Shown: positions 4,882-27,704 of the stretch, piece after piece
How the letters are laid out: the number at the start of each line of letters is the position of its first letter
Numbering within the stretch: the first letter of the stretch is position 1
From: a virus
Taxonomy: Duplodnaviria > Heunggongvirae > Uroviricota > Caudoviricetes
Reading direction: 5' to 3' (one strand)
DNA: 30,936 nt
IMG/VR virus record: IMGVR_UViG_2671180778_000015
Notes under the pieces: model-generated
Told to the model about the DNA's origin: nothing
The model's database searches: none
The model's input: only the letters and a program-made list of their open reading frames with translations
Translations under genes and position numbers: made by a program

Positions 4882-5400
4882 TCACAGGCCGATATTGCGG
4901 CGGTGTTGCTCCAGCCGGTCGACGCCGTTCACCTTCTCAATCATGTTGATGGTGTCGATTTCGACCAGCTCCTTACCTTCCATCGTCAGCCGGAAATAGG
5001 TGCAGACCACGGAGATTTTCGACTCGGTGTCTTCTCCCTGTTTGCCCTCGCCGGTGTCGATTTCTTTCTGACGTCCACGCATGACCACCTCGACGGCCAC
5101 CGTTTCGCCGGTATCGTCGCGCTGGTAAGAGCCTGCAAAACGAATCGGTACGGCATCCACACCGGTTGCGGCGTAAAGCTCCCAGATAACCGAATCCGGG
5201 AAGCCACCGAGCGACCACTCCATTGACAGCGCATCGTCATCAAGGCCGAGGTCTACCGGTGCGCTGCCGTTCATCCCCGCACCGCGATAGTTTTCGAGCT
5301 TACGGGTCAGTTTTGGTAGCGTGACGGACTTCGCGACGCCCTGATAGCTGTAGCCGTTCAGAAAGACGTTCATTAACTTGAGTTTGCGCGGCATTGCCAT
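4882..5400 (-). CDS. FII: tail tube protein FII, 172 aa
   Basis: 172 aa as P2 gpFII; immediately downstream of FI; ATG verified. Confidence 0.9.
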   Translation of the reverse strand: MAMPRKLKLMNVFLNGYSYQGVAKSVTLPKLTRKLENYRGAGMNGSAPVDLGLDDDALSMEWSLGGFPDSVIWELYAATGVDAVPIRFAGSYQRDDTGETVAVEVVMRGRQKEIDTGEGKQGEDTESKISVVCTYFRLTMEGKELVEIDTINMIEKVNGVDRLEQHRRNIGL

Positions 5401-5412
5401 CGGTCAGGCTCC

Positions 5413-6603
5413 TTAATTGCTGTTAACCGAGGTGACCAGATTTGCCAGGTATTTATCGGTAATACGCTGGCGCAGGGTCAGGTTTTCGAGAGGAGGCACC
5501 GGGGTATAGTCGTAGTCGATATACAGTTTTCCGGCCTTAAGGGTTTCCGCATCGTTGGATTCTTCGCTGAACCAGCAGGTCGCATCCACGATATAGCCGT
5601 TTGTTTTCAGCTCACGGAATTTGGCATTGATGCCGTCAACGATGTCGCGAATCAGCGTTGCGGTGATGGGCTTGTCCACCGCCCACATATGCGCCTCAGC
5701 CATCGTGTCGGCCAGCACCTGCGCGGTGCGGGTGTAGTTTTCAAAGATGAACAGCGGGTCATCAGAGCAGGTACGGTTACCCCAGAAGCGGAAACCGTCG
5801 CGGCGAATCAGCGTTGTGACGCCTGACTCGTTCAGCAGGTCAGCATCGGTGCCGGACTCCTGCAAATCCCAGAATACAGAGGTGCTGATGCCGGTAACAC
5901 CGTTCACCCCGACATTGGACAGCGTTTTATGCCAGCCCTGCTCCTGGTCAATTCTGGCTCGCAGACCCAGCGCACGGGCGGTGGCATATGCGGTGGCGGT
6001 GGTACTGGTGACCGTATCCCATGCGAGGAAATCCGGCCAGATGACCATCAGCTCACGCTGGCTGAAATTCTGGCGGTAGGCTTTCACCTCGGAAATGGTC
6101 TTACAGCCCCATGCGCTGATATATCCGAAAGCGCGCAGCTTCTGACAGACTGATGCCAGTGCAACAGCCACCTCTTTGGTATCCAGCCCCGGCACACCAA
6201 GAATACGCGGTTTAACACCGGTTACCGACTCTGCCGCCAGCAGAGCTTTCAGTCCGGTGTACTGACCATTTTCGTCGGTGGTGCCGATGATATTGGAAAC
6301 GGTCTGCGCGAGTTTCGTTTCTTCGTCGTCGCCGGTGCCGTCTTCCACACGCACGACAACGGTGACCGGTTTTGACTGGTCAGCGATGGCCTGCAGCGAC
6401 GCCGCCAGCGTGCCTTTTTTACCGGCCTTTGCAATTGCGCTCTGCACATTGGTAATCAGCACCGGTTTATTGAGGGGGAAGATTTCCGCCTCCGCATCGC
6501 TGGCCGTGCAGACCATGCCGACAATGGCAGTGGATACAGTGGAAATGACGCGGGTGCCGTCGTTAATCTCCAGCACCTGCACGCCATGATGATAGTCGCT
6601 CAT
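5413..6603 (-). CDS. FI: contractile tail sheath protein FI, 396 aa
   Basis: 396 aa as P2 gpFI; sequence MSDYHHGVQVLEINDGTRVISTVSTAIVGMV recognised; ATG verified at 6601-6603. Confidence 0.92.
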   Translation of the reverse strand: MSDYHHGVQVLEINDGTRVISTVSTAIVGMVCTASDAEAEIFPLNKPVLITNVQSAIAKAGKKGTLAASLQAIADQSKPVTVVVRVEDGTGDDEETKLAQTVSNIIGTTDENGQYTGLKALLAAESVTGVKPRILGVPGLDTKEVAVALASVCQKLRAFGYISAWGCKTISEVKAYRQNFSQRELMVIWPDFLAWDTVTSTTATAYATARALGLRARIDQEQGWHKTLSNVGVNGVTGISTSVFWDLQESGTDADLLNESGVTTLIRRDGFRFWGNRTCSDDPLFIFENYTRTAQVLADTMAEAHMWAVDKPITATLIRDIVDGINAKFRELKTNGYIVDATCWFSEESNDAETLKAGKLYIDYDYTPVPPLENLTLRQRITDKYLANLVTSVNSN

Positions 6604-6703
6604 CCGTTTAACTCCGTGGTTAATGGGTGCAACTATTTTCTGTTGGGTAGTGCATGAGACGCTATTTGACCTGGCTGGTCAGTGGATGAAACAACAGACA
6701 AAG

Positions 6704-6726
6704 AAAAGGCGGGTAATCCGCCTGCC
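6704..6726 (-). terminator. hairpin plus T-run terminator downstream of the Z/fun-locus cargo gene
   Basis: Plus strand aaaaGGCGGgtaatCCGCCtgcctgtcttt; on the minus strand the GGCGG/CCGCC stem is followed by TTTT. Lies between the cargo ORF stop (6970) and the FI start (6603). Confidence 0.5.
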
Positions 6727-6969
6727 TGTCTTTATCTGTACTTACTCAGTTTCCAACTGAAAATTAATATAGCCAGAACGCTAGACAATGAATCACTCGC
6801 AGAGCGTTTTAACCAGTGTTACACCCACAGGCTGAACTCACAGTGAAAAGCAAATATGGGATATTTTCCTCGTTTAAATGTTCAGTCAGGTCATTGCAAA
6901 AATCATGCACTACTGGAGATTAACCAGAGCCAAGACATAATCTCTTAGCTCTGTTTATATTTAGGTACA

Positions 6970-7674
6970 TTATTCTTGTTTTTTTGGTGGCCTTGAGTGT
7001 TTTTCTGGTAGTTTTTCTACGATTTTAAAAATGTTATTATCTTTTAGTATTGTTCGCATTACAAAGCTTTCTATAACAGCCAAAAGCGATTTAAATTCAT
7101 CTTCGCTCGGTGCCCATGCCCTATGTGCAGCTGAGTTGCCAGCTTCAGTTACAATTTTAAGTTGCTCTTTTTCTTTTTCCCCGATAAAACCTTCATCTTT
7201 GAGAATATCAACTTTCTGGCTTAATGTATGCCCGGGGTGAATATCCAGAACCTCAACAGTTCTGTCAAAAATAGTTCTAAGCCCAATCGCCGCCAAAATG
7301 AATGATTTATTTTGAAATGCGATATACATTTCGTTCATTATTACATATAGCTGATAATCTTTGCTTAGCACCTCACCAAACCAATCAGGTCTAATTTCAT
7401 CCTGTTCTTGAGCAGGATATATTGATATATGCTCGTTATATATCATAAAATCATGCCCCGAGCCATCCCTTTCTATGTCGTAATCTTCACTGTGACGGGA
7501 CTTTATATATGTAAATATTCCATCACACCCCATACACTCTAATAAATTATATTCACTCTCAGCCCAAAAATAGTTATCCCCATCATTTTTACTCCACTCT
7601 CTTTTTTTATGACCTATTGTGAGACAATTTTTTTCACCTTTACAGTATGGGCAAGGTGCTTTAATTTTTTCCAT
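6970..7674 (-). CDS. cargo (moron) protein at the Z/fun position: N-terminal Cys4 zinc ribbon (CPYC...CMGC) plus C-terminal domain of unknown function, 234 aa
   Basis: ORF in a visibly AT-rich about 1.3 kb insert between FI and G, the known P2 Z/fun accessory locus. ATG at 7672-7674. Four Cys in two CxxC pairs (residues 8/11 and 47/50). C-terminal motif GNSAAHRAW faintly recalls a DUF4145/Abi-like signature (not verified). No resemblance to P2 backbone proteins. Confidence 0.6.
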   Translation of the reverse strand: MEKIKAPCPYCKGEKNCLTIGHKKREWSKNDGDNYFWAESEYNLLECMGCDGIFTYIKSRHSEDYDIERDGSGHDFMIYNEHISIYPAQEQDEIRPDWFGEVLSKDYQLYVIMNEMYIAFQNKSFILAAIGLRTIFDRTVEVLDIHPGHTLSQKVDILKDEGFIGEKEKEQLKIVTEAGNSAAHRAWAPSEDEFKSLLAVIESFVMRTILKDNNIFKIVEKLPEKHSRPPKKQE

Positions 7675-7931
7675 GATAATTACTTTCCGCTTGAGTTAAC
7701 ATAGATACAGCATACATGCCAATAGGTTACAAATGATAACTTGACTGTATGTTTTACCACAATAATGTTTATGTGAAGTAGTTACAAGCATCCCTTTTTC
7801 TTTACCGTAGATTATTTGCATTTATTAACACTGAATTGGGGCATAATTTCCGCATTTGGCACAGGGCAGACCGCCAGATTGGGTTCTACACTGTGCTATA
7901 GATGCGTAACCCCACATCAGAGCTAATACAT

Positions 7932-8459
7932 CTATTGCGGCATTTCCGGCCATTCAGGATTTGCAGGATCCACACGACTGACCAGAACGCTGTAGCGTTC
8001 CCATGCTTCCAGTCGTGTGCGCTCCTCCTCTGTTGCCATATTCAGCCTGACAGCGCGCTCCAGCGGCAAAATCACGGATTCAGCATCTGCAAGAAGTCTG
8101 GCTTTCCGAATTTCTGCCTGCTGCTGTAATTCCTCTGCCGTATAAATGCGTTTAATCACTTTGCCGTCCTTAAACATCCAGCCCCCTGAAATATCCGCCC
8201 GTCGGTTAGCAGTAATATCCGGCACTTCAACAACACTTAATCCATCCGGTCTGATAGCTGTCACATCCTTTTCCACATAGCGGATAATATTATCTTTGTC
8301 GTACGCTATTTTTATCGTGTCATCAGCAAAATACTTTTGTTCTTCGTACCAGTTCTTACCATCTTCTGAAAAAAACCAGACAACATCAAAGTCCTTTGTC
8401 AATTGATATTGTCCAACCGTTTTTGGATTACCTGCCGTTATATTTATCAAATGCTGCAT
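7932..8459 (-). CDS. G: tail fiber assembly chaperone G, 175 aa
   Basis: 175 aa as P2 gpG; immediately downstream of tail fiber gene H; ATG verified. Confidence 0.85.
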
Positions 8460-8462
8460 AAA

Positions 8463-10781
8463 TTATACCTGCGCCACGTTATACCAAGTCCCGTTAATGT
8501 ATTTCTGCACCGGTCTGTAATATACGCCACCAATGTTATCGGCAGAGTTTGAGCCGGTATCCTGAACAATAATGCCGGAATATACACACCCGGACGGTGC
8601 CTGATGTGTCCATGTCATGCCATTGTTCGCAGGTTTGTATGTGGCAGCACCACCAAGCCGGATATCCCGGACATAGCGTGAATCAAAATTACTATAGTTA
8701 GATGGTGATACCTGCCCGTTAACAGCAAAAGTGATGCTGTTATCTGTATTTCTCTGACTGTAAAAATGCCAGCCTGCATCATCACCTAATTCAGCCACCA
8801 CAGGACGACTTGAGTTTCCCCACAAATTGAATGCGGCTTCCTTCGTGGATGTATTGCTGCTGCTGACCGTGAACTTTTTCCCGCTACCGGCACGTACTTT
8901 GGTACTTGAGGCAATATCACCAGTAACACTCAGGCCATGCCCCATTGACACTCCGCCATTAGCGTTATTGATAGTCAGCGGCCTTAAACCGTTCCATGTC
9001 CCAAATTTATCACCAGAGGCCGTCAGCATTAAATATGTGCTGCCACCATCATTCCTGATAAAGAATCCATAATTGCCATAAGCAATGCGCAGACCATTAG
9101 CACTGAGTGATGTAATTTCACCTCTAGAACGGAGACCATAAGCGGAGCTGAGTGATAATTCTTCCTGAGCGTCATAGTTTCCTGTCGCCCAGCGAATTAC
9201 CCCGCCCTGCACTGTTTCATGCCAGATAGTGTCTCCTTCTCCACCACGAAACTTTCTGAGATATTTTTTGCCGCCTCTGGTGCCTGAACATAAGGCCGTA
9301 GACATATAGGCATTCTGGCTTCCGCCATCCTGATTAATCGTTCCGGTCATTGCGTCGCCCTGACGATTCCAGTCACGACGCCAGCCGGGGGAGTAGCCGT
9401 CCCCATGATTAATGTAAGTGAATTGCGCGCTGGTTGTACCGCCACCACTTGATGTTGTCGGCGTGGTCACTCGGATAGTGATTGCAGATTTAGTTCCCAT
9501 GACCTCGACGACACAACCTGCCAGGTGGATATCACCACATCCGGTATCCGTAATGATTTTGTTATTTGCATATGACCAGGAGCCTTTGCACATCCAGTAC
9601 GGATGATTAAATGCACCGCGGGAATCCAGCCATTCAATAAACTGAGCGGTTGTCCAGTTTCCGGCTTCAGTGCTCAAAGCGCCGCTATAAGCACGACAGG
9701 CACCGATATTTTTCGTGAAGGTATCCTTTCCCGGAATATCCGCACCGTTCTGATCTTTCTGAAGACGTTTTTCAGCATTGTCATAGGCAGACTTCACCGC
9801 TTTTGGTGTTGCGGCCAGCGTTTCAGAATCACTGTTGGTGGCGCTACTGAGCTGGACAAGACCTTTTCGCGCGGTGGTGGCATCCTGTGCAGTGTATTTC
9901 CCGTTAGCAAGGTCATACGCTGTCTTAACCGCCTTTGGCGTTGCGGCCAGCGTTTCAGAATCGCTGTTGGTGGCGCTACTTAGCTGGACAAGACCTTTTC
10001 GCGCGGTGGTGGCATCCTGTGCGGTATATTTCCCGTTAGCGAGGTCATATGCTGCCTTTACCGCCTTTGGCGTTGCCGCAAGCGTTTCAGAATCGCTATT
10101 GGTGGCGCTACTGAGCTGGACAAGACCTTTTCGCGCTGTGGTGGCATCCTGCGCGGTATATTTCCCGTTAGCAAGATCATAAGCGGCCTTAACCGCTTTC
10201 GGCGTTGCGGCCAGTGTTTCAGACGTGCTGTTGGTCGCACTGCTTAACTGAGTAAAACCTTTTGCGGTTAGCGAGGCGTCCGGGTGACGTCGTGACTGTT
10301 CGTGCTCTGCAATTTTGTCATCAACGTAATCCTGCGTCGCCATCACCGTTGTGGTGTCAATGGTCAGCGCCACTGAGGCCACACTGCTGACGATGATGAC
10401 CATGCGGCAGGTCTGCGAACGCCCTGAGCCTTCGGCAAGGGCAGGCTTATAACTTTCGGCCATGTTCGCCACAGCAATTAACGTTCCCGCATCATCGTAC
10501 AGGCCAAGCTCACGCATCCAGAAACCGCCCACCTCCGGCGGAACAACCAGCTCTGCGATAATATAATTACTGTTTCGTTTGTCCTGGCTGATTTTGTTCA
10601 GCGCATGTCGCCAGACTTCATGGATAAGCCCGGTCTGTCCGGCATCCGGGACAGGCAATTTACCACCGCCATCCCCGACGGCCATCGTGGTAATGTTGAC
10701 CTTCCGCCCTCCCGGTGCGGTTGCCGCTGCCAGCTTTGCTGCACCGGCAGTGGTGATAACGGTTTTGAATTTTGTGCTCAT
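8463..10781 (-). CDS. H: tail fiber protein H, 772 aa
   Basis: Position between I and G; N-terminus MSTKFKTVITTAGAAKLAAA is P2 gpH-like; contains four tandem copies of the QLSSATNSxSETLAATPKAVKxAYD tail-fiber repeat; longer than P2 H (which I recall as 669 aa). Confidence 0.88.
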   Translation of the reverse strand: MSTKFKTVITTAGAAKLAAATAPGGRKVNITTMAVGDGGGKLPVPDAGQTGLIHEVWRHALNKISQDKRNSNYIIAELVVPPEVGGFWMRELGLYDDAGTLIAVANMAESYKPALAEGSGRSQTCRMVIIVSSVASVALTIDTTTVMATQDYVDDKIAEHEQSRRHPDASLTAKGFTQLSSATNSTSETLAATPKAVKAAYDLANGKYTAQDATTARKGLVQLSSATNSDSETLAATPKAVKAAYDLANGKYTAQDATTARKGLVQLSSATNSDSETLAATPKAVKTAYDLANGKYTAQDATTARKGLVQLSSATNSDSETLAATPKAVKSAYDNAEKRLQKDQNGADIPGKDTFTKNIGACRAYSGALSTEAGNWTTAQFIEWLDSRGAFNHPYWMCKGSWSYANNKIITDTGCGDIHLAGCVVEVMGTKSAITIRVTTPTTSSGGGTTSAQFTYINHGDGYSPGWRRDWNRQGDAMTGTINQDGGSQNAYMSTALCSGTRGGKKYLRKFRGGEGDTIWHETVQGGVIRWATGNYDAQEELSLSSAYGLRSRGEITSLSANGLRIAYGNYGFFIRNDGGSTYLMLTASGDKFGTWNGLRPLTINNANGGVSMGHGLSVTGDIASSTKVRAGSGKKFTVSSSNTSTKEAAFNLWGNSSRPVVAELGDDAGWHFYSQRNTDNSITFAVNGQVSPSNYSNFDSRYVRDIRLGGAATYKPANNGMTWTHQAPSGCVYSGIIVQDTGSNSADNIGGVYYRPVQKYINGTWYNVAQV
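9768..10280 (-). repeat. in-frame tandem repeat, 4 copies of about 120 bp (40 aa) inside tail fiber gene H
   Basis: Protein residues about 168-338 repeat (TAQDATTARKGLVQLSSATNSDSETLAATPKAVKAAYDLANGKY); near-identical 120-nt units are directly visible on the plus strand between about 9770 and 10240. Confidence 0.85.
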
Positions 10782-19647: not shown

Positions 19648-21420
19648 ATGACCATCACCACAGACACCACTCTTTTACACGACCCGCGTCGTCAGGCGGC
19701 GCTGCTGTACTGGCAGGGGTTTTCCGTGCCGCAGATTGCCGCCATGTTGCAGATGAAACGCCCGACGGTGCAGAGCTGGAAACAGCGCGACGGCTGGGAC
19801 AGCGTTGCCCCCATCAGCCGTGTCGAAATGAGTCTGGAAGCGCGGCTGACCCAGCTCATCATCAAACCGCAGAAAACCGGCGGTGACTTCAAGGAAATTG
19901 ACCTGCTGGGACGCCAGATTGAACGACTGGCACGGGTAAACCGTTACAGTCAGACCGGCAACGAGGCAGACCTTAATCCGAACGTTGCTAACCGCAACAA
20001 AGGCGGGCGGCGCAAACCGAAAAAGAATTTTTTCAGTGACGAGGCCATCGAAAAGCTGGAGCAGATTTTCTTTGAGCAGTCTTTCGAATATCAGTTGCAC
20101 TGGTATCGCGCCGGGCTTGAGCACCGCATCCGCGATATCCTGAAATCCCGCCAGATTGGCGCGACGTTTTATTTTTCCCGCGAGGCGCTGCTGCGCGCCC
20201 TGAAAACAGGTCATAACCAGATTTTTCTGTCGGCCAGTAAAACGCAGGCGTATGTGTTCCGCGAATACATCATCGCCTTTGCCCGTCTGGTTGACGTTGA
20301 CCTGACCGGTGACCCGATTGTCCTGGGCAATAACGGCGCAAAACTGATTTTTCTCGGCACCAACTCCAACACCGCGCAGAGCCATAACGGCGACCTGTAC
20401 GTCGACGAGATTTTCTGGATTCCGAATTTTCAGGTGCTGCGTAAGGTGGCATCAGGTATGGCCTCACAGAGTCACCTGCGATCGACCTATTTCTCCACCC
20501 CGTCCACGCTGGCGCACGACGCCTACCCGTTCTGGTCGGGTGAACTGTTCAACCGGGGACGCGCCAGCGCCGCCGAACGCGTGGAAATCGACGTCAGTCA
20601 TAACGCCCTTGCCGGTGGGCTTCTCTGTGCGGACGGCCAGTGGCGGCAGATTGTCACCATTGAGGACGCCCTGAAAGGCGGCTGCACGCTGTTCGACATT
20701 GAGCAGCTCAAACGCGAAAACAGCGCCGACGATTTTAAAAACCTGTTCATGTGTGAATTTGTTGACGACAAGGCGTCGGTGTTCCCGTTCGAGGAGCTGC
20801 AACGCTGTATGGTCGACACGCTGGAAGAATGGGAAGACTATGCGCCGTTTGCCGCAAATCCGTTCGGCTCCCGCCCGGTATGGATTGGTTACGACCCGTC
20901 ACACCGTGGCGACAGCGCCGGATGCGTGGTGCTGGCACCGCCGGTGGTGGCCGGTGGCAAATTCAGGATCCTTGAGCGTCACCAGTGGAAAGGCATGGAC
21001 TTTGCCACCCAGGCAGAATCCATCCGCAAACTCACCGAAAAATACAACGTCGAATACATCGGGATTGATGCCACCGGCCTCGGTGTCGGTGTGTTCCAGC
21101 TCGTGCGCTCGTTCTATCCCGCCGCTCGCGATATCCGCTACACGCCGGAAATGAAAACCGCAATGGTGCTCAAGGCAAAAGACGTTATCCGCCGTGGCTG
21201 TCTGGAATATGACGTCAGCGCCACCGACATCACCAGCTCGTTTATGGCTATCCGCAAGACCATGACCAGCAGCGGACGCAGCGCCACCTATGAGGCCAGC
21301 CGCAACGAGGAAGCCAGCCACGCCGACCTCGCCTGGGCGACCATGCACGCCCTGTTAAATGAGCCACTCACCGCCGGTATCAGCACTCCGCTGACATCCA
21401 CCATTCTGGAGTTTTACTGA
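19648..21420 (+). CDS. P: terminase large (ATPase) subunit P, 590 aa
   Basis: Trimmed to the MTITTDTTLLHDPRRQAALLYWQGF start (ATG 19648-19650, GGCGAGG upstream) gives 590 aa as P2 gpP; stop overlaps the Q start (ACTGATG). Confidence 0.9.
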   Translation: MTITTDTTLLHDPRRQAALLYWQGFSVPQIAAMLQMKRPTVQSWKQRDGWDSVAPISRVEMSLEARLTQLIIKPQKTGGDFKEIDLLGRQIERLARVNRYSQTGNEADLNPNVANRNKGGRRKPKKNFFSDEAIEKLEQIFFEQSFEYQLHWYRAGLEHRIRDILKSRQIGATFYFSREALLRALKTGHNQIFLSASKTQAYVFREYIIAFARLVDVDLTGDPIVLGNNGAKLIFLGTNSNTAQSHNGDLYVDEIFWIPNFQVLRKVASGMASQSHLRSTYFSTPSTLAHDAYPFWSGELFNRGRASAAERVEIDVSHNALAGGLLCADGQWRQIVTIEDALKGGCTLFDIEQLKRENSADDFKNLFMCEFVDDKASVFPFEELQRCMVDTLEEWEDYAPFAANPFGSRPVWIGYDPSHRGDSAGCVVLAPPVVAGGKFRILERHQWKGMDFATQAESIRKLTEKYNVEYIGIDATGLGVGVFQLVRSFYPAARDIRYTPEMKTAMVLKAKDVIRRGCLEYDVSATDITSSFMAIRKTMTSSGRSATYEASRNEEASHADLAWATMHALLNEPLTAGISTPLTSTILEFY

Positions 21421-22454
21421 TGAGCAAGAAAAAAGGGAAAACACCGCGACCAGCGGCAAAAACAATGACCGCCAGCGCCCCGAAAATGGAGGCATTCACC
21501 TTTGGTGAGCCGGTGCCGGTACTCGATCGCCGTGACATTCTGGATTACGTCGAGTGCATCAGTAACGGCAGATGGTATGAGCCACCGGTCAGCTTTACCG
21601 GTCTGGCAAAAAGCCTGCGTGCTGCCGTGCATCACAGCTCCCCGATTTACGTCAAACGTAATATTCTGGCCTCGACATTTATCCCGCATCCGTGGCTTTC
21701 CCAGCAGGATTTCAGCCGCTTTGTGCTGGATTTTCTGGTGTTCGGTAATGCGTTTCTGGAAAAGCGTTACAGCACCACCGGTAAGGTCATCAGACTGGAA
21801 ACCTCACCGGCAAAATATACCCGCCGTGGTGTGGAAGAAGATATTTACTGGTGGGTGCCGTCCTTCAACGAGCCAACACCTTTCACGCCCGGCTCCGTGT
21901 TTCACCTGCTGGAGCCGGATATCAATCAGGAGCTGTACGGCCTGCCGGAATATCTCAGCGCCCTTAACTCTGCCTGGCTGAATGAATCAGCCACGCTGTT
22001 CCGCCGCAAGTATTACGAAAACGGCGCACATGCCGGATACATCATGTACGTCACCGATGCCGTGCAGGATCGCAACGATATCGAAATGCTCCGCGAAAAC
22101 ATGGTGAAGTCGAAAGGCCGCAACAACTTTAAAAACCTGTTTCTCTATGCCCCACAGGGGAAAGCCGACGGCATTAAAATTATCCCGCTCAGTGAAGTGG
22201 CAACGAAGGACGATTTTTTTAATATCAAAAAAGCCAGCGCCGCTGACCTGCTGGACGCGCACCGCATCCCCTTTCAGTTGATGGGCGGCAAGCCGGAGAA
22301 CGTCGGGTCGCTGGGCGATATTGAGAAAGTGGCAAAGGTCTTTGTCCGCAATGAGCTTATCCCGCTACAGGACAGGATCCGCGAGATAAACGGCTGGCTC
22401 GGCCAGGAAGTCATCCGCTTTAAAAACTACTCACTGGACACTGACAACGGCTGA
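21420..22454 (+). CDS. Q: portal (capsid vertex) protein Q, 344 aa
   Basis: 344 aa as P2 gpQ; follows P; ends near cos as in P2. Confidence 0.9.
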   Translation: MSKKKGKTPRPAAKTMTASAPKMEAFTFGEPVPVLDRRDILDYVECISNGRWYEPPVSFTGLAKSLRAAVHHSSPIYVKRNILASTFIPHPWLSQQDFSRFVLDFLVFGNAFLEKRYSTTGKVIRLETSPAKYTRRGVEEDIYWWVPSFNEPTPFTPGSVFHLLEPDINQELYGLPEYLSALNSAWLNESATLFRRKYYENGAHAGYIMYVTDAVQDRNDIEMLRENMVKSKGRNNFKNLFLYAPQGKADGIKIIPLSEVATKDDFFNIKKASAADLLDAHRIPFQLMGGKPENVGSLGDIEKVAKVFVRNELIPLQDRIREINGWLGQEVIRFKNYSLDTDNG

Positions 22455-22459
22455 ACATC

Positions 22460-22481
22460 GCCGCCTGCGGGCGGCTTTTTT
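22460..22481 (+). terminator. rho-independent terminator after Q
   Basis: GCCGCC tgcg GGCGGC stem-loop followed by TTTTTT, 6 nt after the Q stop codon. Confidence 0.7.
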
Positions 22482-22623
22482 ACAACCCGCCATCACGCCC
22501 TCACACGCTCACCACCGCACAAAACAGCCCGCAGACACACCAACGCCCCGGCGAACAATCTAAACGCCATCACGACGCGCTCAGACGCTGAAAAAATAAA
22601 ATCAGCACCACCGCCAGCGCGCA

Positions 22624-22642
22624 GTGCTTTCCCCGCCTCGCC
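22624..22642 (-). other. cos: cos site (19-nt cohesive-end sequence GGCGAGGCGGGGAAAGCAC on the minus strand)
   Basis: Plus strand GTGCTTTCCCCGCCTCGCC at 22624-22642 is the exact reverse complement of the 19-nt P2 cohesive end as I recall it; located just beyond Q as on the P2 map. Confidence 0.7.
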
Positions 22643-22802
22643 CGCCCGCTTCGTGGGGCGGTTTTAATGCAGTTGCATGAGTACACTGATTCCAGGCCAG
22701 CCCTAGCGGCGAAAAGCCAGAACAGACAAAACGGATGTATGCAAAATCATGCACCTAATGTATGCGTAGCTATAAAAAGGGGAAACGGCGGATAAATGGC
22801 AT

Positions 22803-22829
22803 AAAACCGGCATCCAGTATGCCGGTTTT
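22803..22829 (-). terminator. bidirectional hairpin terminator downstream of the cargo operon
   Basis: AAAACCGGCAT ccagt ATGCCGGTTTT: perfect 11-bp stem flanked by an A-run and a T-run; 22 nt beyond the stop of the 207-aa membrane protein gene. Confidence 0.7.
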
Positions 22830-22850
22830 ATTATGCTGAACCATTTGGTG

Positions 22851-23474
22851 TTATTTGGATAACTTACCCTTAATATAATCAACAATTCCCATAATCAGTT
22901 CACTTAGAGGGGTTGCCAACTCAATACTCTCATTTGCTCTTTGCCCTGGTTGGTTTTTATCGGTCGGATGATGAAACGCAGACTTAATGAGTGTAAGGAT
23001 TAAGGTCAAGCCAACACCAAGGATAAATGCAACTATAGCAATCAATGAACTGGCAGAAAGCCAGTCCGTAGATAAGTTACCCATAGCCTTATCATTTTTG
23101 TCGAGATGGACACTTTTTGTGGCTACTGGTTTTACAGACTCTGATTTCGACTCAGAGCATTCCCCCTTTAATTCGCAAACATCTTTTTGAGTCTGAGTCT
23201 GAGTCAAAGCTGAAACGATATTACTTTTAGCCTGAAGTAATCCATTACCAACTTTAAGAGCAAAGCACAAACCAACTACTAAAAACAAAATTGCAATAAG
23301 CAAAGCTATGCTCGACACAATCAAACGCATCCATCTCCGCTCGATAGCATCATGCACATCTCTACGTAACAAAATATCGGGATCACTATCCCCACGAGGA
23401 GTTGACGTAGGTGGTAAATTAGAAGGTTGAGGTGACTGAGCCGGAGATTGCCCAGAAAGATCTATTTCTGCCAT
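22851..23474 (-). CDS. cargo protein: 2-TM membrane protein with Pro/Ser-rich N-terminus, 207 aa, function unknown
   Basis: ATG at 23472-23474; two hydrophobic helices (about residues 50-75 and 138-160) separated by a polar Cys/Lys/Ser-rich loop; AT-rich codon usage unlike the phage backbone; co-directional with and 67 bp downstream of the ImmA-like gene; followed by a terminator. Confidence 0.6.
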   Translation of the reverse strand: MAEIDLSGQSPAQSPQPSNLPPTSTPRGDSDPDILLRRDVHDAIERRWMRLIVSSIALLIAILFLVVGLCFALKVGNGLLQAKSNIVSALTQTQTQKDVCELKGECSESKSESVKPVATKSVHLDKNDKAMGNLSTDWLSASSLIAIVAFILGVGLTLILTLIKSAFHHPTDKNQPGQRANESIELATPLSELIMGIVDYIKGKLSK

Positions 23475-23541
23475 AAAAAATCACCATTATCTTAATAGAT
23501 AATGGTGATTCTAAACTGGTTTGGGAAAAGTTAAAGGGCTA

Positions 23542-24027
23542 TTAGTAAGCCATACCCAGCCCTTTTAGTCGCCAGTGCATCGCTGCTTCCGATACATTAA
23601 ATATGTTGGCTAAACGTAAAGTACTATCAATTCCTTCACGAGATACCAACTGACGGATGGCATCTTCAGGCATCAATAGTTCTGCGGCAAACTGGTTAGC
23701 TTCGATTTCACGGTAATCACGAATACCTGTTGAATAGTTGCCCACACTATCGCGATGAAACTCACCATCCTTCGTATGCCCCAAAACGTGATGAGCTAAC
23801 TCATGCGCTACTGTAAAGCGTTGACGGTTATAGTGCTCGGTTGAATCGAAATAAATCCTAGGCACGCCATTTTTAATTACTGCCAGACCACTTAACCCAT
23901 CGTTGTTAAACGCCGACTCCGTGAGTGCCTCCACTCTTGCTCCCCATGCTGCGGCGAGTTTAAACGGATCGACAGGTAGTCGGCGATCCCAGTAGCGACT
24001 AAGCAGATTTTTAGCTGCAATACTCAT
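23542..24027 (-). CDS. cargo protein: ImmA/IrrE-family (COG2856/DUF955-type) zinc metallopeptidase, 161 aa
   Basis: HEXXH motif in FTVAHELAHHVLGH followed by EIEANQFAAELLMPEDAI, the pattern I associate with ImmA/IrrE peptidases; strong RBS (GGAGGCACC ATG); AT-rich locus between cos and gene A. Confidence 0.7.
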   Translation of the reverse strand: MSIAAKNLLSRYWDRRLPVDPFKLAAAWGARVEALTESAFNNDGLSGLAVIKNGVPRIYFDSTEHYNRQRFTVAHELAHHVLGHTKDGEFHRDSVGNYSTGIRDYREIEANQFAAELLMPEDAIRQLVSREGIDSTLRLANIFNVSEAAMHWRLKGLGMAY

Positions 24028-24062
24028 GGTGCCTCCTACATTTGAAGTTAAAGGGATACAGC

Positions 24063-24089
24063 CTTATCACAGTTGTTATTTTTCGTCAA
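24063..24089 (-). promoter_or_regulatory. candidate sigma70-type promoter for the ImmA-like/membrane protein operon
   Basis: Minus strand reads TTGACG, then a 17-nt spacer, then TAAGGC about 45 nt upstream of the ImmA-like ATG. The -35 is good, the -10 is weak. Purely sequence-based. Confidence 0.3.
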
Positions 24090-24746
24090 GACTGTTTTTA
24101 CGCCTTTACTATAACACTAATCCACGTTTTCCCATAACATTTTTGACATCACCTATGCATTCATTTCTGCACACAGCACTATATCTTTGATGATAACAAC
24201 CGATGAATACTTGTGATCAGCTTATGTTTTGTAAAAATCTTATAAATCAAAATATTGAGATCAAAAAAATCACTAACGCCTCGCGTAGCGAGTGGTTAAA
24301 CCTTGGTGATACTTAAAGCAAATTTCAGCACCACCATCGCTCCATAACTACCATAACAATATGATTTTAATATGATTGATGACGTTATTTTTAAGTGCCT
24401 ATTCAGTTAGGCTACATCGTATTGTGTATTTTTCAATCACTGACAAATTTAAAAAATTTAGACTGCTTTCAAGGCCTTATCATCCGTAGCCTCTGTTTTT
24501 TACTTTGAGCTATATCAAAAAAAGCTCAAACATCCTTGATGCAAAACCAGTATTACACAACATAAAATGCAGCCAGAAACAACGACATACTATATGTTGT
24601 GTTGTTCAGGCTCTCTGTTCGGTGATGTGCCAGATCACTTTGCGTTTAAACAGAGCATTATTTCAGGGCAAGACTTCGCTCAATAGTCACTCCGCCTTAG
24701 AAGCGCATATACCGGCGGAAGTTGCCCTCTGCTTACAGGAGGCAAT

Positions 24747-24860
24747 ATGAAGAAGTGCTACTACTGCATTCTCGTTCTGGCTCTCTTTGGCTATCCAAAC
24801 GGTAGTCCGAGTGGTTTGTCAGTAAACGTCAGTAATATCCATGTAAGTATTTTTCTTTAG
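24747..24860 (+). CDS. small hydrophobic peptide ORF, 37 aa (MKKCYYCILVLALFGYPNGSPSGLSVNVSNIHVSIFL)
   Basis: Not in the supplied ORF track (below size cutoff); hand-translated. AGGAGG 5 nt upstream of the ATG; TAG stop 12 nt before a strong hairpin terminator; hydrophobic N-terminal half. Could be a small toxin or leader peptide; no recognised family. Confidence 0.4.
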   Translation: MKKCYYCILVLALFGYPNGSPSGLSVNVSNIHVSIFL

Positions 24861-24872
24861 TATGCTTCAAAC

Positions 24873-24902
24873 AAAAAAACCACCTGCCAGGGTGGTTTTT
24901 TT
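24873..24902 (+). terminator. rho-independent (bidirectional) terminator
   Basis: AAAAAAA CCACC tgccag GGTGG TTTTTTT: GC stem extended by an A-run/T-run pair; follows the 37-aa ORF and precedes the 3' end of gene A on the opposite strand. Confidence 0.75.
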
Positions 24903-25162
24903 GCGCCCGTCATCAACCCGATGAAAGACTAGCAAGACTTCGCTCGAGACGAATTATGCTTCGACAGAAGGTCACTCGCAATGATTTTATTAGCCGAAAT
25001 AGATGCTCTTTTATGACTCGCATCAAATAGCTGCCTTCAATTACATGCTAGCGATTCCATACAATTTAGCCTTTTAATTCAGCATGCTATTGACCTTCCT
25101 CTGCCTTAGAGTCGCTCCACATAAACCATTCAAAGGCATATCAAATCACGTTGTGTTTTTAC

Positions 25163-27439
25163 TCAAATGGATAACAAAAATCCCGGCCACTCATCAGCGA
25201 CCGGATACGTGAATTTTTTCCCGTCATAATTTACGGTCGCGCCACGCGCCAGCGCCTCAAGCTCCCATCGCTGCGGCCTGATACCGTTCTGAGCAAGGTC
25301 AACGCGGATACGGGTAATTTGCATTCTTTCCGACCGGGTCAGTCTGGCCGATGGTGCAATTTCATGTGGTTTTAACGGGCTTCCGTTTCTTTGCTGACGG
25401 TTTGGCGTTCGCAGGTCGTGTTTTAATGCGCCCCTGAGCGCCCTCACGACCTCCGGTTCATTCCATTCAATAACACCGTCATCAACCAGATTAAGCACTG
25501 CTGCGGCGTGCTCAGAAGGTGTGGGAGCCGGTAACGAAGTATCACCACCGGTGACCTTTCCACAGTTATTGACAGGACTCCGAGGCGCGGCGATGCCGCT
25601 TTTTAAAGTCAAAGGCTCAACGACCGGCACTTTCGGCACAATGCGCCAGTCCGTGGTTCTGGTGATATGAATATGACGCGCGCCGAGATGCGGCGCGTAA
25701 ATGCCGACCACTCTCTCGACTTCTTCCTCGTACTCGTTAACGTCATCCGACGGGCTACGGGCGACTCTGACAGTCTGACAATCGCGCGGAACATTTGCCC
25801 CACCCTGCGCGCTGATATACAACGCAAAATCACCACTGTCTGCGGCGGCGCGTGCAGCCTCGACGCGCTCGTCAAACTCATCAGCAATGCTGACGCCGCG
25901 AGGCAATTTGCGTAGTTCACGGTAAGCCCCCATTGTCGGCAGGCCAACCGTTTTAAATTGCGGGATGCGCCACGTTGACGCCCATGCGGTAACAGCCGCC
26001 GCTGTGTCTTTCAGCGGCCTGCCGGTATCGTTATCGAGCTGACCATCCAGCGCATAGCCGTCGATGTTTTTTGAGATGTATTTCGCGATATATCCCGCAG
26101 CACCGCCCCGGTTAAGGTGTTTTGCCTGAAAACGGTTTCGCGCGGCTCCTCTTTCGTCGCCATCCTCTTTGAGCGCATAGCGACGCATGATTTCGATAAT
26201 CTGGTTACGCTGGCGTGGATTACAAAAAAGCATCATATGCCAGTGCGGCGTTCCGTCGTGGTGTGGCTCAACAACACGCAAACCATAAGCCTGTAAATCA
26301 TTATCCTTGAATGCCGTGCGCATCAGGCTCCAGATACGGCAGAGATAACGCTGCGCATCTTTTGGATTAAATGCCTCATCGTTCCAGCCGTGATTAAGCT
26401 GGACGGTTTTACTTTCACCTTTTCCGACCTGACGTGTCGGGTGATATTTTGACGGCGTGGTCAGCGTGATAAACATCCCTACATCACCCTCTGCAGCGGC
26501 GTAACGCTCAATACCGGCGATGGTGTTCATCAGCTCCATCCGGCGAATTTCAGGATTAGAAATACTGCCCATAACCTTACTGATAAGGTCGATGCGTTCG
26601 CCGGTTTCCCTGTTTTCAAGGTCACACGATTTAAGAAATTCCAGATTTGCCTGGCGGCGCGCACGCACATCACGAATGGCATGTTTACTGGCATAAGGAG
26701 AACGGTCTTTATTCACCTCCCCGACAGCAATCAGTAACGCCTCATGCCAGCGCATACGCTGGCCTTTAAGCTGATGAGTCCACCACTCATCGTTAAACAG
26801 ACGGGCAATGGCAGAATATGCCTGCCTCGTGGTCATCTGTCCTTTACGGTATTTTTTCCAGTAGAGAGGGGAAATATTGAAAGCACGTGCAGCGCCAGCA
26901 ACATGACCATACAGGTGAGCCTGCGCCTCATCCGTAAACAGCGATTCTTTTTCGCCATGCGCATCCACCCAGGCATCGCAGAGTTCCTCATACATCATGA
27001 AAAGCTGCGATGAGATACGGGCGGCAAACTTTTTCAGCTCCTTGTCATTCATTCCAGGCAGGCGCGCATAGTGGTCACGCTCTGCCAGAAACAGCAACGA
27101 CGCGTCGGTGTTCATTTCATGGCGCTGATTCACACGCTCAATACGCGGCCATAAACGACGCTGAAAAGTGGATGTGAGGAAATAAAACCCGTGTACCGGA
27201 CTTTTATTGCGCCGGATGTAGTCATAGCGTGAAGTAAACAGCGAGCGCAAAAAGTAAGGCAGGCGGTTAATCGTGGATAAAACACCTTGCACCTGACGCA
27301 TCTCGTCACGTGTAAGGGGTCTTTCGCGCCCGACGGCCTCGCGTGGCGCGTTCCATGCATAAGCACCGGTAAACGCCTTACCGGTGCCTGCAGCAAATGC
27401 TGAAGGAGGGACAAAACGCCCGGAGGCTTTAACGGCCAT
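25163..27439 (-). CDS. A: replication initiation protein A (rolling-circle endonuclease), about 758 aa
   Basis: Long ORF in the position of P2 gene A with sequence I recognise as gpA (MAVKASGRFVPPSAFAAGTGK..., HxH-type rolling-circle motif region GTPHWHMMLF). The ORF-track start at 27481 is a TTG; the first ATG (27437-27439) gives the P2-like N-terminus, so I use it. The C-terminus differs from P2. Confidence 0.85.
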   Translation of the reverse strand: MAVKASGRFVPPSAFAAGTGKAFTGAYAWNAPREAVGRERPLTRDEMRQVQGVLSTINRLPYFLRSLFTSRYDYIRRNKSPVHGFYFLTSTFQRRLWPRIERVNQRHEMNTDASLLFLAERDHYARLPGMNDKELKKFAARISSQLFMMYEELCDAWVDAHGEKESLFTDEAQAHLYGHVAGAARAFNISPLYWKKYRKGQMTTRQAYSAIARLFNDEWWTHQLKGQRMRWHEALLIAVGEVNKDRSPYASKHAIRDVRARRQANLEFLKSCDLENRETGERIDLISKVMGSISNPEIRRMELMNTIAGIERYAAAEGDVGMFITLTTPSKYHPTRQVGKGESKTVQLNHGWNDEAFNPKDAQRYLCRIWSLMRTAFKDNDLQAYGLRVVEPHHDGTPHWHMMLFCNPRQRNQIIEIMRRYALKEDGDERGAARNRFQAKHLNRGGAAGYIAKYISKNIDGYALDGQLDNDTGRPLKDTAAAVTAWASTWRIPQFKTVGLPTMGAYRELRKLPRGVSIADEFDERVEAARAAADSGDFALYISAQGGANVPRDCQTVRVARSPSDDVNEYEEEVERVVGIYAPHLGARHIHITRTTDWRIVPKVPVVEPLTLKSGIAAPRSPVNNCGKVTGGDTSLPAPTPSEHAAAVLNLVDDGVIEWNEPEVVRALRGALKHDLRTPNRQQRNGSPLKPHEIAPSARLTRSERMQITRIRVDLAQNGIRPQRWELEALARGATVNYDGKKFTYPVADEWPGFLLSI

Positions 27440-27704
27440 ATGAGCCAAAAGCCTCTGAACAACGCCTGCTGAGTTGCTCAACCTGCGCGTTTAAATCAGC
27501 AAAAGACTTTGCGCTTCCGGTCAGAATATCGTGATGCATCAGGCCGGAAACGAGCTGGCTTAATTTCGGATAATAACCAACCACCGCAAGCCATTCCTGA
27601 CCGGCGTTTTTACCGCTTTCCGCTCTCTTTTTCTCGTGGAGAATAAACTGAAAGCTGTCACTGGTAACGACATAACGTTCGCCAATTTCAATACGAATAC
27701 TCAT
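27429..27704 (-). CDS. early-operon small protein (P2 orf83-like), 91 aa
   Basis: Position immediately upstream of A in the B-A operon; size and order match the small ORFs between B and A in P2. Confidence 0.6.
   Translation of the reverse strand: MSIRIEIGERYVVTSDSFQFILHEKKRAESGKNAGQEWLAVVGYYPKLSQLVSGLMHHDILTGSAKSFADLNAQVEQLSRRCSEAFGSYGR

Follow-up and report, generated by a model that had tools for sequence, protein, structure and literature searches.

RAZR (ring-activated zinc-finger RNase), formerly known as PD-T7-4, is an anti-phage protein of E. coli UMB1727 (Vassallo et al. 2022, PMC9519451; Zhang et al., Nature 2026, PMC13017515; PDB 9Y9C/9Y6U). The protein consists of 219 amino acids (aa), has a Cys4 zinc ribbon at its N-terminus and a DUF4145/HEPN RNase domain at its C-terminus, and acts by abortive infection (PMC13017515). 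RAZR alone is non-toxic, also when it is overproduced without its trigger, and forms linear oligomers. Upon infection, it assembles into a 24-mer around the ~170 Å rings formed by the phage portal or an Erf-like protein, and the assembled enzyme cuts single-stranded RNA non-specifically, so that the infection is aborted (PMC13017515). Both R146 and H154 are needed for defence, and the zinc-finger domain is the determinant of phage specificity as well as the most variable part of the protein (PMC13017515). DUF4145 has been assigned to the HEPN superfamily; the HEPN catalytic motif is described as "mostly conserved (80%)" in DUF4145, and some HEPN families are known to keep the His without the Arg (Anantharaman et al. 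2013). Accessory genes of P2-like phages are found at preferred positions, and the Z/fun position has been named among the P2 defence hotspots (PMC13586616). In this paper, we describe a 234-aa protein encoded at the Z/fun position of a P2-like prophage in the IMG/VR record IMGVR_UViG_2671180778_000015 (Caudoviricetes); the whole stretch of DNA analyzed, 30,936 nucleotides (nt) in length, is called the window hereafter. Judged from its sequence, the protein is treated here as a distant RAZR relative of the same design, and not as a member of PD-T7-4 as this family is now delimited.

The queried stretch of the prophage is identical to that in E. coli O121 201805972 (NZ_CP119441). Over ~6700-7900, between the tail sheath gene FI and the tail-fibre assembly gene G, the guanine-cytosine content (GC) is 0.34-0.39, compared with ~0.55-0.59 in the flanks, and the gene for the 234-aa protein is the sole sizeable open reading frame (ORF) of this stretch, as had been stated in the original prediction, which was made from the DNA letters alone (coordinates of all features are collected in Table 1). 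The same site holds either SIR2+DUF6602 or an HNH endonuclease in other P2-like prophages, which agrees with the proposal of that prediction that the insert is single-gene accessory cargo of the P2 Z/fun locus. The FI-G insert is indeed Z/fun hotspot cargo, i.e. it is variable, compositionally foreign, and enclosed by conserved backbone on both sides. It resembles P2 fun(Z), which blocks phage T5, and the other cargo of this site, which in other prophages includes genes of defence type, in its position between gpG and gpFI and in its AT-rich, foreign-looking composition, whereas the SIR2+DUF6602 and HNH cargos have no sequence relationship to the 234-aa protein.

The two N-terminal CxxC pairs from which a zinc-binding domain had been proposed, CPYC and CMGC, are located at aa 8-11 and 47-50 and are kept family-wide, which supports a Cys4 zinc ribbon. 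The C-terminal motif GNSAAHRAW (aa 179-187) had been thought to recall DUF4145, and a profile search bears this out: Pfam DUF4145 (PF13643; HEPN clan CL0291) matches aa 115-201 over profile positions 2-87 of 88, with 51.5 bits against a cut-off of 23.1 (E=1.1e-13). In addition, PHROG 1305, which bears the automatic annotation "DNA binding protein", matches the protein over its full length (3.4e-32), and a search of NCBIfam with the protein gave no match. An AlphaFold model built from 11 sequences had a predicted local distance difference test score (pLDDT) of 78, and one built from 120 family representatives reached a pLDDT of 95.8 and a predicted template modelling score (pTM) of 0.76. The model consists of an all-beta N-terminal domain (aa 3-86, pLDDT >90), a linker, and a helical bundle (aa 99-221), and the C-terminal domain is accordingly modelled with the alpha-helical HEPN fold that the original prediction had envisaged as a possibility. 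The solved folds closest to this domain include HEPN-MNT toxins (e.g. 7AE8 and 5YEP), and the non-catalytic MtlR is also among the structural matches.

Conservation was counted in 120-129 family representatives. The four Cys, P87, P96, W98, R133, D137, K154 and P223 are invariant or near-invariant, as is the block A178-G-(S/N)-A-A-A-H184-R185-G-W187-x-P189, in which H184 is present in 129/129 relatives, R185 in 125/129 and W187 in 128/129. The most conserved stretch of the protein is the helix that bears His184; variation is greatest between the two zinc knuckles and in the beta insert that follows the second of them, and the N-terminal domain shows 2.9-3.0 bits of entropy. The ORF might have been a decayed fragment, a concern raised at the outset. 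However, it is full length and keeps all the family-invariant residues, and the ratio of nonsynonymous to synonymous substitutions (dN/dS) against a copy in a lambdoid prophage is 0.15 (dS 0.57, dN 0.09); therefore, the protein is under purifying selection and is not a decaying fragment.

For the comparison with RAZR, its sequence was taken from PDB chain 9y9c_OA, which had been fished with a hand-written DUF4145-like probe (the probe itself is not evidence), and was extended to residues 11-208 via a 65%-identical plasmid homologue (the Spartinivicinus homologue was used for the extension). The published landmarks V21, AGN68-70, R146, H154 and D179/D180/R184 fit the recovered sequence, in which the active-site motif reads R146-IVGNQAV-H154-PG. 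When the 120-member family was aligned by hhalign with RAZR and three homologues, the HEPN domain and the tail were matched with Prob 86% and E=5e-6; with relaxed/global settings and seven RAZR-type sequences, aa 3-234 were aligned with RAZR 11-207 at Prob 92-94% and E=7e-7 to 2e-8. In these alignments, both CxxC knuckles (C8/C11 and C47/C50 with RAZR C16/C19 and C49/C52), R133/R105, K154/K124, G179-N180/G149-N150, H184/H154 and the C-terminal L/M-P motif are all in register, which points to a remote, collinear homology. Furthermore, PHROG 1305 matches RAZR over its full length as well (7.1e-29). Pairwise BLASTP, on the other hand, found RAZR with E=0.017 only, and in the HEPN domain only.

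Both are single proteins of ~220-235 aa in which a Cys4 zinc ribbon appears to be joined through a conserved, Pro-rich linker to a DUF4145/HEPN domain, followed by a short tail that bears the L/M-P motif, and both are carried by mobile elements. In both, the zinc-finger domain is the most variable part and conservation is strongest on the active-site helix; the conserved His lies within G-N-x-A-x-H in either protein, and helix 2 has an Arg that is likewise conserved (R133/R105). The original prediction had treated the protein as of unknown function; as its architecture matches that of the experimentally characterized RAZR/PD-T7-4, this can no longer be said without reservation. The differences are nevertheless considerable. 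The identity between the two proteins is ~18-20%, and the part that follows the second knuckle exceeds that of E. coli RAZR by ~20 aa; the RAZR homologues of Streptococcus phages have an insertion at the same point as these extra strands. RAZR-type proteins read R-[IV]-[IVT]-G-N-[NQ]-A-V-H-P-G, whereas the present family reads [TVI]-[DE]-A-G-[SN]-A-A-A-H-R-G-W-x-P, so that the P-G after the His in RAZR is replaced by an invariant R-G-W-x-P.

We favour, with a probability of roughly 0.55, the reading that the ORF encodes a RAZR-type (PD-T7-4) abortive infection system, which consists of a single protein, is borne by the prophage and forms a self-contained Z/fun cassette of ~1 kb. The anti-phage activity, the RNase activity, the sensing by the zinc ribbon and the activation through oligomerization would then all be as expected from the likeness to RAZR. 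In the mechanism that we propose, the variable N-terminal Cys4 zinc-ribbon domain would bind a protein of the infecting phage, and this binding would rearrange the oligomerized C-terminal HEPN (DUF4145) domains, such that a composite HEPN site centred on His184 would cut RNA and translation would stop. The invading phage would then fail to spread, and the lysogen population, and hence the prophage, would be protected. We regard it as doubtful that the trigger is a large protein ring of the kind that activates RAZR, and this is the weakest link of the scheme: ring-templated assembly is the least secure part because the inter-dimer residues of RAZR are not conserved and the sensor domain differs.

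Several results weigh against this reading. In the search by HMMER, neither the 234-aa protein nor profiles of 11 or 120 relatives reached the RAZR chain in the PDB at E ≤ 10, even though the RAZR entries are in the database searched (Gp77 of SECphi27 retrieves both 9y6u and 9y9c). The PADLOC model for PD-T7-4 (PDLC04109) gave no match to the protein at E ≤ 1 and none among the 120 relatives at E ≤ 0.01, while RAZR itself scored 1e-97 and its homologues from Gammaproteobacteria, Campylobacter and Streptococcus phages scored between 1e-67 and 1e-91. When the N-terminal domain is aligned separately, its match to that of RAZR is weak (Prob 75% local, 4% global), and the residues that form the salt bridges between RAZR dimers (D179, D180 and R184) show no visible conservation in the family. 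The equivalent of R146, which is essential in RAZR, is T176, and this position is never Arg in the family (T, V, I or A); the domain might for this reason not be an RNase. The gene is also rare, being present in 13 of 5,426 complete E. coli genomes (one identical copy, 11 at ~82% nt identity and one truncated), and truncated versions exist in this species, i.e. a 158-aa product (P0010) on 122 contigs and a copy with 51% coverage in ET979 (H13) that is annotated as a hypothetical protein; the cassette is therefore decaying in some lineages, though intact in the window. Moreover, the genes directly beside 80 family loci are for the most part unremarkable, and when PADLOC was run on 118 neighbours, each of the listed families was matched by one of the 118, a defence signal so thin that it is not used as support here. 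Finally, a literature search by the accessions of the protein and of its lambdoid homologue found no paper. It is because of the ~18-20% identity, the PADLOC and HMMER nulls, the weak N-terminal match and the absence of R146 that we place the protein outside PD-T7-4.

The active site cannot be the same as that of RAZR, since the position equivalent to R146 is occupied by Thr176. The HEPN motif R-x4-6-H, which takes the form R-x7-H in DUF4145 and RAZR, is kept in its His184 but lacks its Arg throughout the family, and none of the 129 relatives has an Arg at H-4 to H-8. For the protein to be catalytic, the role of R146 must therefore have passed to some other conserved basic residue, the candidates being R185, beside His184, and R133. 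Tentatively, the family, which is mostly proteobacterial and counts at least 262 clusters at E ≤ 1e-30 or 2,589 at E ≤ 1e-3, could be a large, hitherto unannotated sister clade of RAZR in which the HEPN site was rebuilt without the canonical arginine around an H-R-G-W-x-P centre with R185 and/or R133, and in which the zinc-ribbon sensor was enlarged; we hold this to be possible, at odds clearly short of even. If it is true, different phage assemblies would be recognized, and the nuclease might be switched on through a geometry unlike that of RAZR. Among the systems in the papers cited, RAZR is the one shown to be activated by wrapping a large phage protein ring, and a deeply divergent clade that shares its layout but differs in the sensor and in the place of the catalytic arginine would be a test of what this mechanism cannot do without. 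As the PD-T7-4 model misses the clade, inventories of prophage defence that are based on PADLOC, at least, undercount it. The zinc-ribbon-HEPN design of single-gene defence and the P2 hotspot are already known; what is new is a variant that PADLOC missed, with a putatively rearranged catalytic centre, and it is best filed as such, not as a categorically new system. It is also a short and readily cloned candidate with clear sites for point mutants (H184, R185, R133 and the Cys knuckles).

The size of the family was estimated by a profile search of 1.84 billion cluster representatives (clusters at 50% identity), which yielded the two counts given above. The best 150 matches are all full length and mostly 210-270 aa long. 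In a genome scan, the family was found mainly in Gamma-, Beta- and Alphaproteobacteria, with scattered matches in other phyla. Its members recur as single genes on mobile elements of several kinds. The E. coli copies examined (H2 and H7) are located in lambdoid prophages, not in P2-like ones; the lambdoid copy with 82% nt identity adjoins genes for Hok/Gef and a metallo-beta-lactamase (MBL)-fold hydrolase, and an anti-phage dGTPase is encoded two annotated genes further. A relative in Atlantibacter adjoins the tail-tip genes of a lambdoid prophage, one in Duffyella is carried by an integrative element (ICE) with a TraI relaxase and integrases, and one on a metagenomic plasmid-like contig has colicin, AbiTii, RelB/YafQ and PLD nuclease genes alongside. 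In Pseudomonas sp. NPDC086251, a P2-like prophage has a 39%-identical relative between its homologues of gpS and gpV, with which it shares the strand (locus L025, 3403-5359), and these two flanking proteins match the S and V proteins of the window with BLASTP E-values of 7e-39 and 1e-26. Judging by the coordinates of neighbouring ORFs and Pfam counts, three to four Pseudomonas loci apparently have this arrangement, and the gpS-gpV interval is a second insertion point for this cargo family within P2-type tail clusters. Furthermore, about a dozen genomes of Erythrobacteraceae/Sphingomonadaceae (Sphingomonadales; L039-L049, L052 and L054) encode a relative at 36-37% identity to the 234-aa protein, with a downstream ORF at identical locus coordinates (4938-5843) in 10 of 13 loci, which suggests one conserved element common to several genera. 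A search by tblastn of 50,697 phage records gave nothing at 1e-5; therefore, no phage in that collection has a close relative. With its presence at two insertion points of P2-like prophages and in lambdoid prophages, an ICE and a plasmid-like contig, the cassette is a compact case of a defence gene, if it is one, crossing unrelated mobile elements. As a separate observation, canonical RAZR/PD-T7-4 homologues were seen in the filamentous Vibrio phage 10N.261.54.B5_PE001 (an inovirus; L017), on Campylobacter conjugative plasmids (L010, Campylobacter lari), and in Streptococcus prophages, where they adjoin the repressor genes (L011/L018/L019).

The extent of the unit that moves can be read from the flanks. 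On the FI side, the DNA from 6604 to ~6783 still belongs to the P2 backbone, which is conserved here at ~92% identity across over 900 E. coli genomes, and on the G side backbone homology restarts at ~7857, ~75 bp before the stop codon of G, which sets the bounds of the insert. The DNA in common with the lambdoid copies is ~6872-7867 and includes the ORF, ~100 bp 3' and ~190 bp 5' of it; the gene therefore moves as a unit of ~1 kb. The original prediction had given the insert a downstream terminator of its own at 6704..6726. A hairpin with a T-run does exist there, but it belongs to the backbone and is present in prophages whose cargo is the HNH endonuclease or SIR2+DUF6602, so that it is not the gene's own; it would terminate transcripts from both G and the cargo. 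The cargo gene has the same orientation as the late tail operon and precedes this terminator, and there is no clear terminator after gpG, which makes late read-through transcription plausible, in addition to any promoter in the co-travelling 5' region. This region presumably holds the gene's own promoter or regulatory sequence. A scan of its minus strand for the sigma-70 consensus found no promoter upstream of the ORF, and as the candidates picked by eye are weak and unconserved, none is claimed. Two small ORFs (7696-7821 and 7825-7953) were rejected as genes, as indels break both in the lambdoid copy. At the G-proximal junction of the insert, an 18-nt motif occurs once in the window (0.03 expected by chance). 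It recurs upstream of the lambdoid copies, just past gpG in a P2-like prophage whose cargo, the HNH endonuclease, is unrelated, and at a locus of Cedecea (L002/L003, 6983-7000; L005, 6299-6316; L021, 5927-5944). A role at the junction, in recombination or in regulation is possible.

The absence of the R-x7-H Arg from the whole family, where RAZR requires it, could also mean that the protein is a non-catalytic HEPN protein with a nucleic-acid-binding or regulatory role, e.g. in the regulation of the prophage or in superinfection exclusion through binding instead of RNA cleavage, and that its zinc ribbon binds DNA or RNA. The label of PHROG 1305, the MtlR-like non-catalytic folds among the structural matches, and the HEPN families on record with His but no Arg (Anantharaman et al. 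2013) all point the same way. However, that label is automatic, and the same PHROG also matches RAZR, a demonstrated RNase. Moreover, His184 is found in every relative counted, an invariant Arg adjoins it, and AG(S/N)AAAHRGWxP being the most conserved stretch fits an active site; we therefore consider a purely binding role rather unlikely. The Arg-less site lends itself to yet another explanation, i.e. that a phage-encoded RAZR relative serves as a counter-defence decoy, which co-assembles or competes with RAZR-type sensors of the host and shields the phage's own portal ring during lytic growth. Portal rings do trigger RAZR (PMC13017515), and a gene co-directional with the late tail operon, placed between gpG and the operon terminator, could plausibly be transcribed by late read-through. 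Nevertheless, His184 and R185 are strictly conserved, relatives reside in ICEs, on plasmid-like contigs and at chromosomal sites without phage genes, and co-assembly is unlikely for a protein that is 18% identical to RAZR and differs from it in the zinc-finger domain, so that we give this explanation a very small chance indeed.

A HEPN toxin without a dedicated phage sensor might instead stabilize the mobile element as an addiction module, held in check by an unrecognized antitoxin, such as a small RNA or ORF in the flanks. The HEPN-MNT toxins are among the closest solved folds of the C-terminal domain, the cassette contains ~190 bp of conserved 5' sequence, and the lambdoid copy adjoins Hok/Gef. 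Yet HEPN-MNT toxins have the canonical Rx4-6H and a cognate MNT antitoxin gene, while the 234-aa protein has neither the canonical Arg nor an MNT neighbour; no conserved partner gene was found beside family members, whether in the four contexts inspected one gene at a time or in the immediate neighbourhood of the 80 loci, and the small upstream ORFs are not conserved. RAZR itself is not toxic when overproduced without its trigger (PMC13017515), and we judge an addiction module to be improbable.

A DUF4145-type HEPN domain as the presumed effector is also found in PD-T7-3, DS-38, BxaP and Ishtar1, but none of them has the domain order and size of the 234-aa protein. In PD-T7-3, DUF4145 is N-terminal (aa 25-144) and there is no listed zinc-ribbon match, and BxaP and Ishtar combine an N-terminal DUF4145 with other C-terminal domains. 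DS-38 (DefensePredictor), which combines a zinc finger with HEPN, was considered as the identity of the protein and rejected, as WP_001313577.1 has 366 aa and a different zinc finger.

Table 1. Features of the FI-G interval of the window, with the basis of each assignment
Feature	Coordinates	Strand	Basis or remark
Tail sheath gene FI	5413..6603	-	RefSeq annotation; one flank of the insert
Hairpin with T-run, intrinsic-terminator-like	6707-6723	-	Terminator scan; P2 backbone upstream of FI, kept with other cargo
Variable insert at the Z/fun position	~6784-7856	.	~1.07 kb, GC ~0.35-0.39; bounds by alignment to P2-like prophages with HNH or SIR2 cargo
3' untranslated region co-travelling with the ORF	6872..6969	-	Homology to lambdoid copies begins at 6872
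Intact 234-aa ORF: zinc-ribbon sensor (putative), linker, DUF4145/HEPN, short basic tail	6970..7674	-	WP_050497020.1, RefSeq "DUF4145 domain-containing protein"
C-terminal tail, aa 211-234, invariant P223 ("LPEK"), basic end	6970..7044	-	Aligns with RAZR-family S-[ML]-P-E around P196
HEPN (DUF4145) helical domain, aa 99-210; invariant R133, D137, K154	7045..7380	-	
Putative active-site motif A178-G-N-S-A-A-H184-R185-A-W187-A-P189	7108..7143	-	Family conservation
His184 codon	7123-7125	-	Codon of T176 (RAZR R146 equivalent) at 7147-7149
Linker, aa 87-98; conserved P87, P96, W98	7381..7416	-	Conservation; position matches RAZR linker 66-79 in hhalign
N-terminal domain, aa 1-86: Cys4 zinc ribbon (C8-P-Y-C11, C47-M-G-C50), extra beta-strands aa 53-86; putative sensor	7417..7674	-	Conservation, model, hhalign
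5' region co-travelling with the ORF	7675..7867	-	~82% identical to the upstream region of lambdoid copies
18-nt motif CCGCATTTGGCACAGGGC / CCGCWTTTGGCASAGDGC	7850-7867	+	G-proximal junction of the insert
Tail-fibre assembly gene G	7932..8459	-	RefSeq annotation; other flank of the insert

Elsewhere in the window, a second AT-rich cargo island (22455-25162, GC 0.34-0.45) is located between the portal gene (21420-22454, plus strand) and the replication gene A (25163-27481, minus strand), a position that corresponds to the P2 hotspot of tin and old (replication endonuclease/portal). It encodes an M78 peptidase of the CapP/ImmA type at 23542-24027 on the minus strand (Pfam 6e-21; PADLOC capP 3e-28, with matches to RmrA models as well) and a 207-aa ORF at 22851-23474 on the minus strand that has no Pfam or PADLOC match; the stretch 24028-25162 contains no ORF of at least 90 aa. 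In addition, the translation of the tail-fibre gene H (8463-10781) was seen to contain three to four tandem copies of a unit of ~44 aa (…ATTARKGLVQLSSATNSDSETLAATPKAVKAAYDLANGKYTAQD…).

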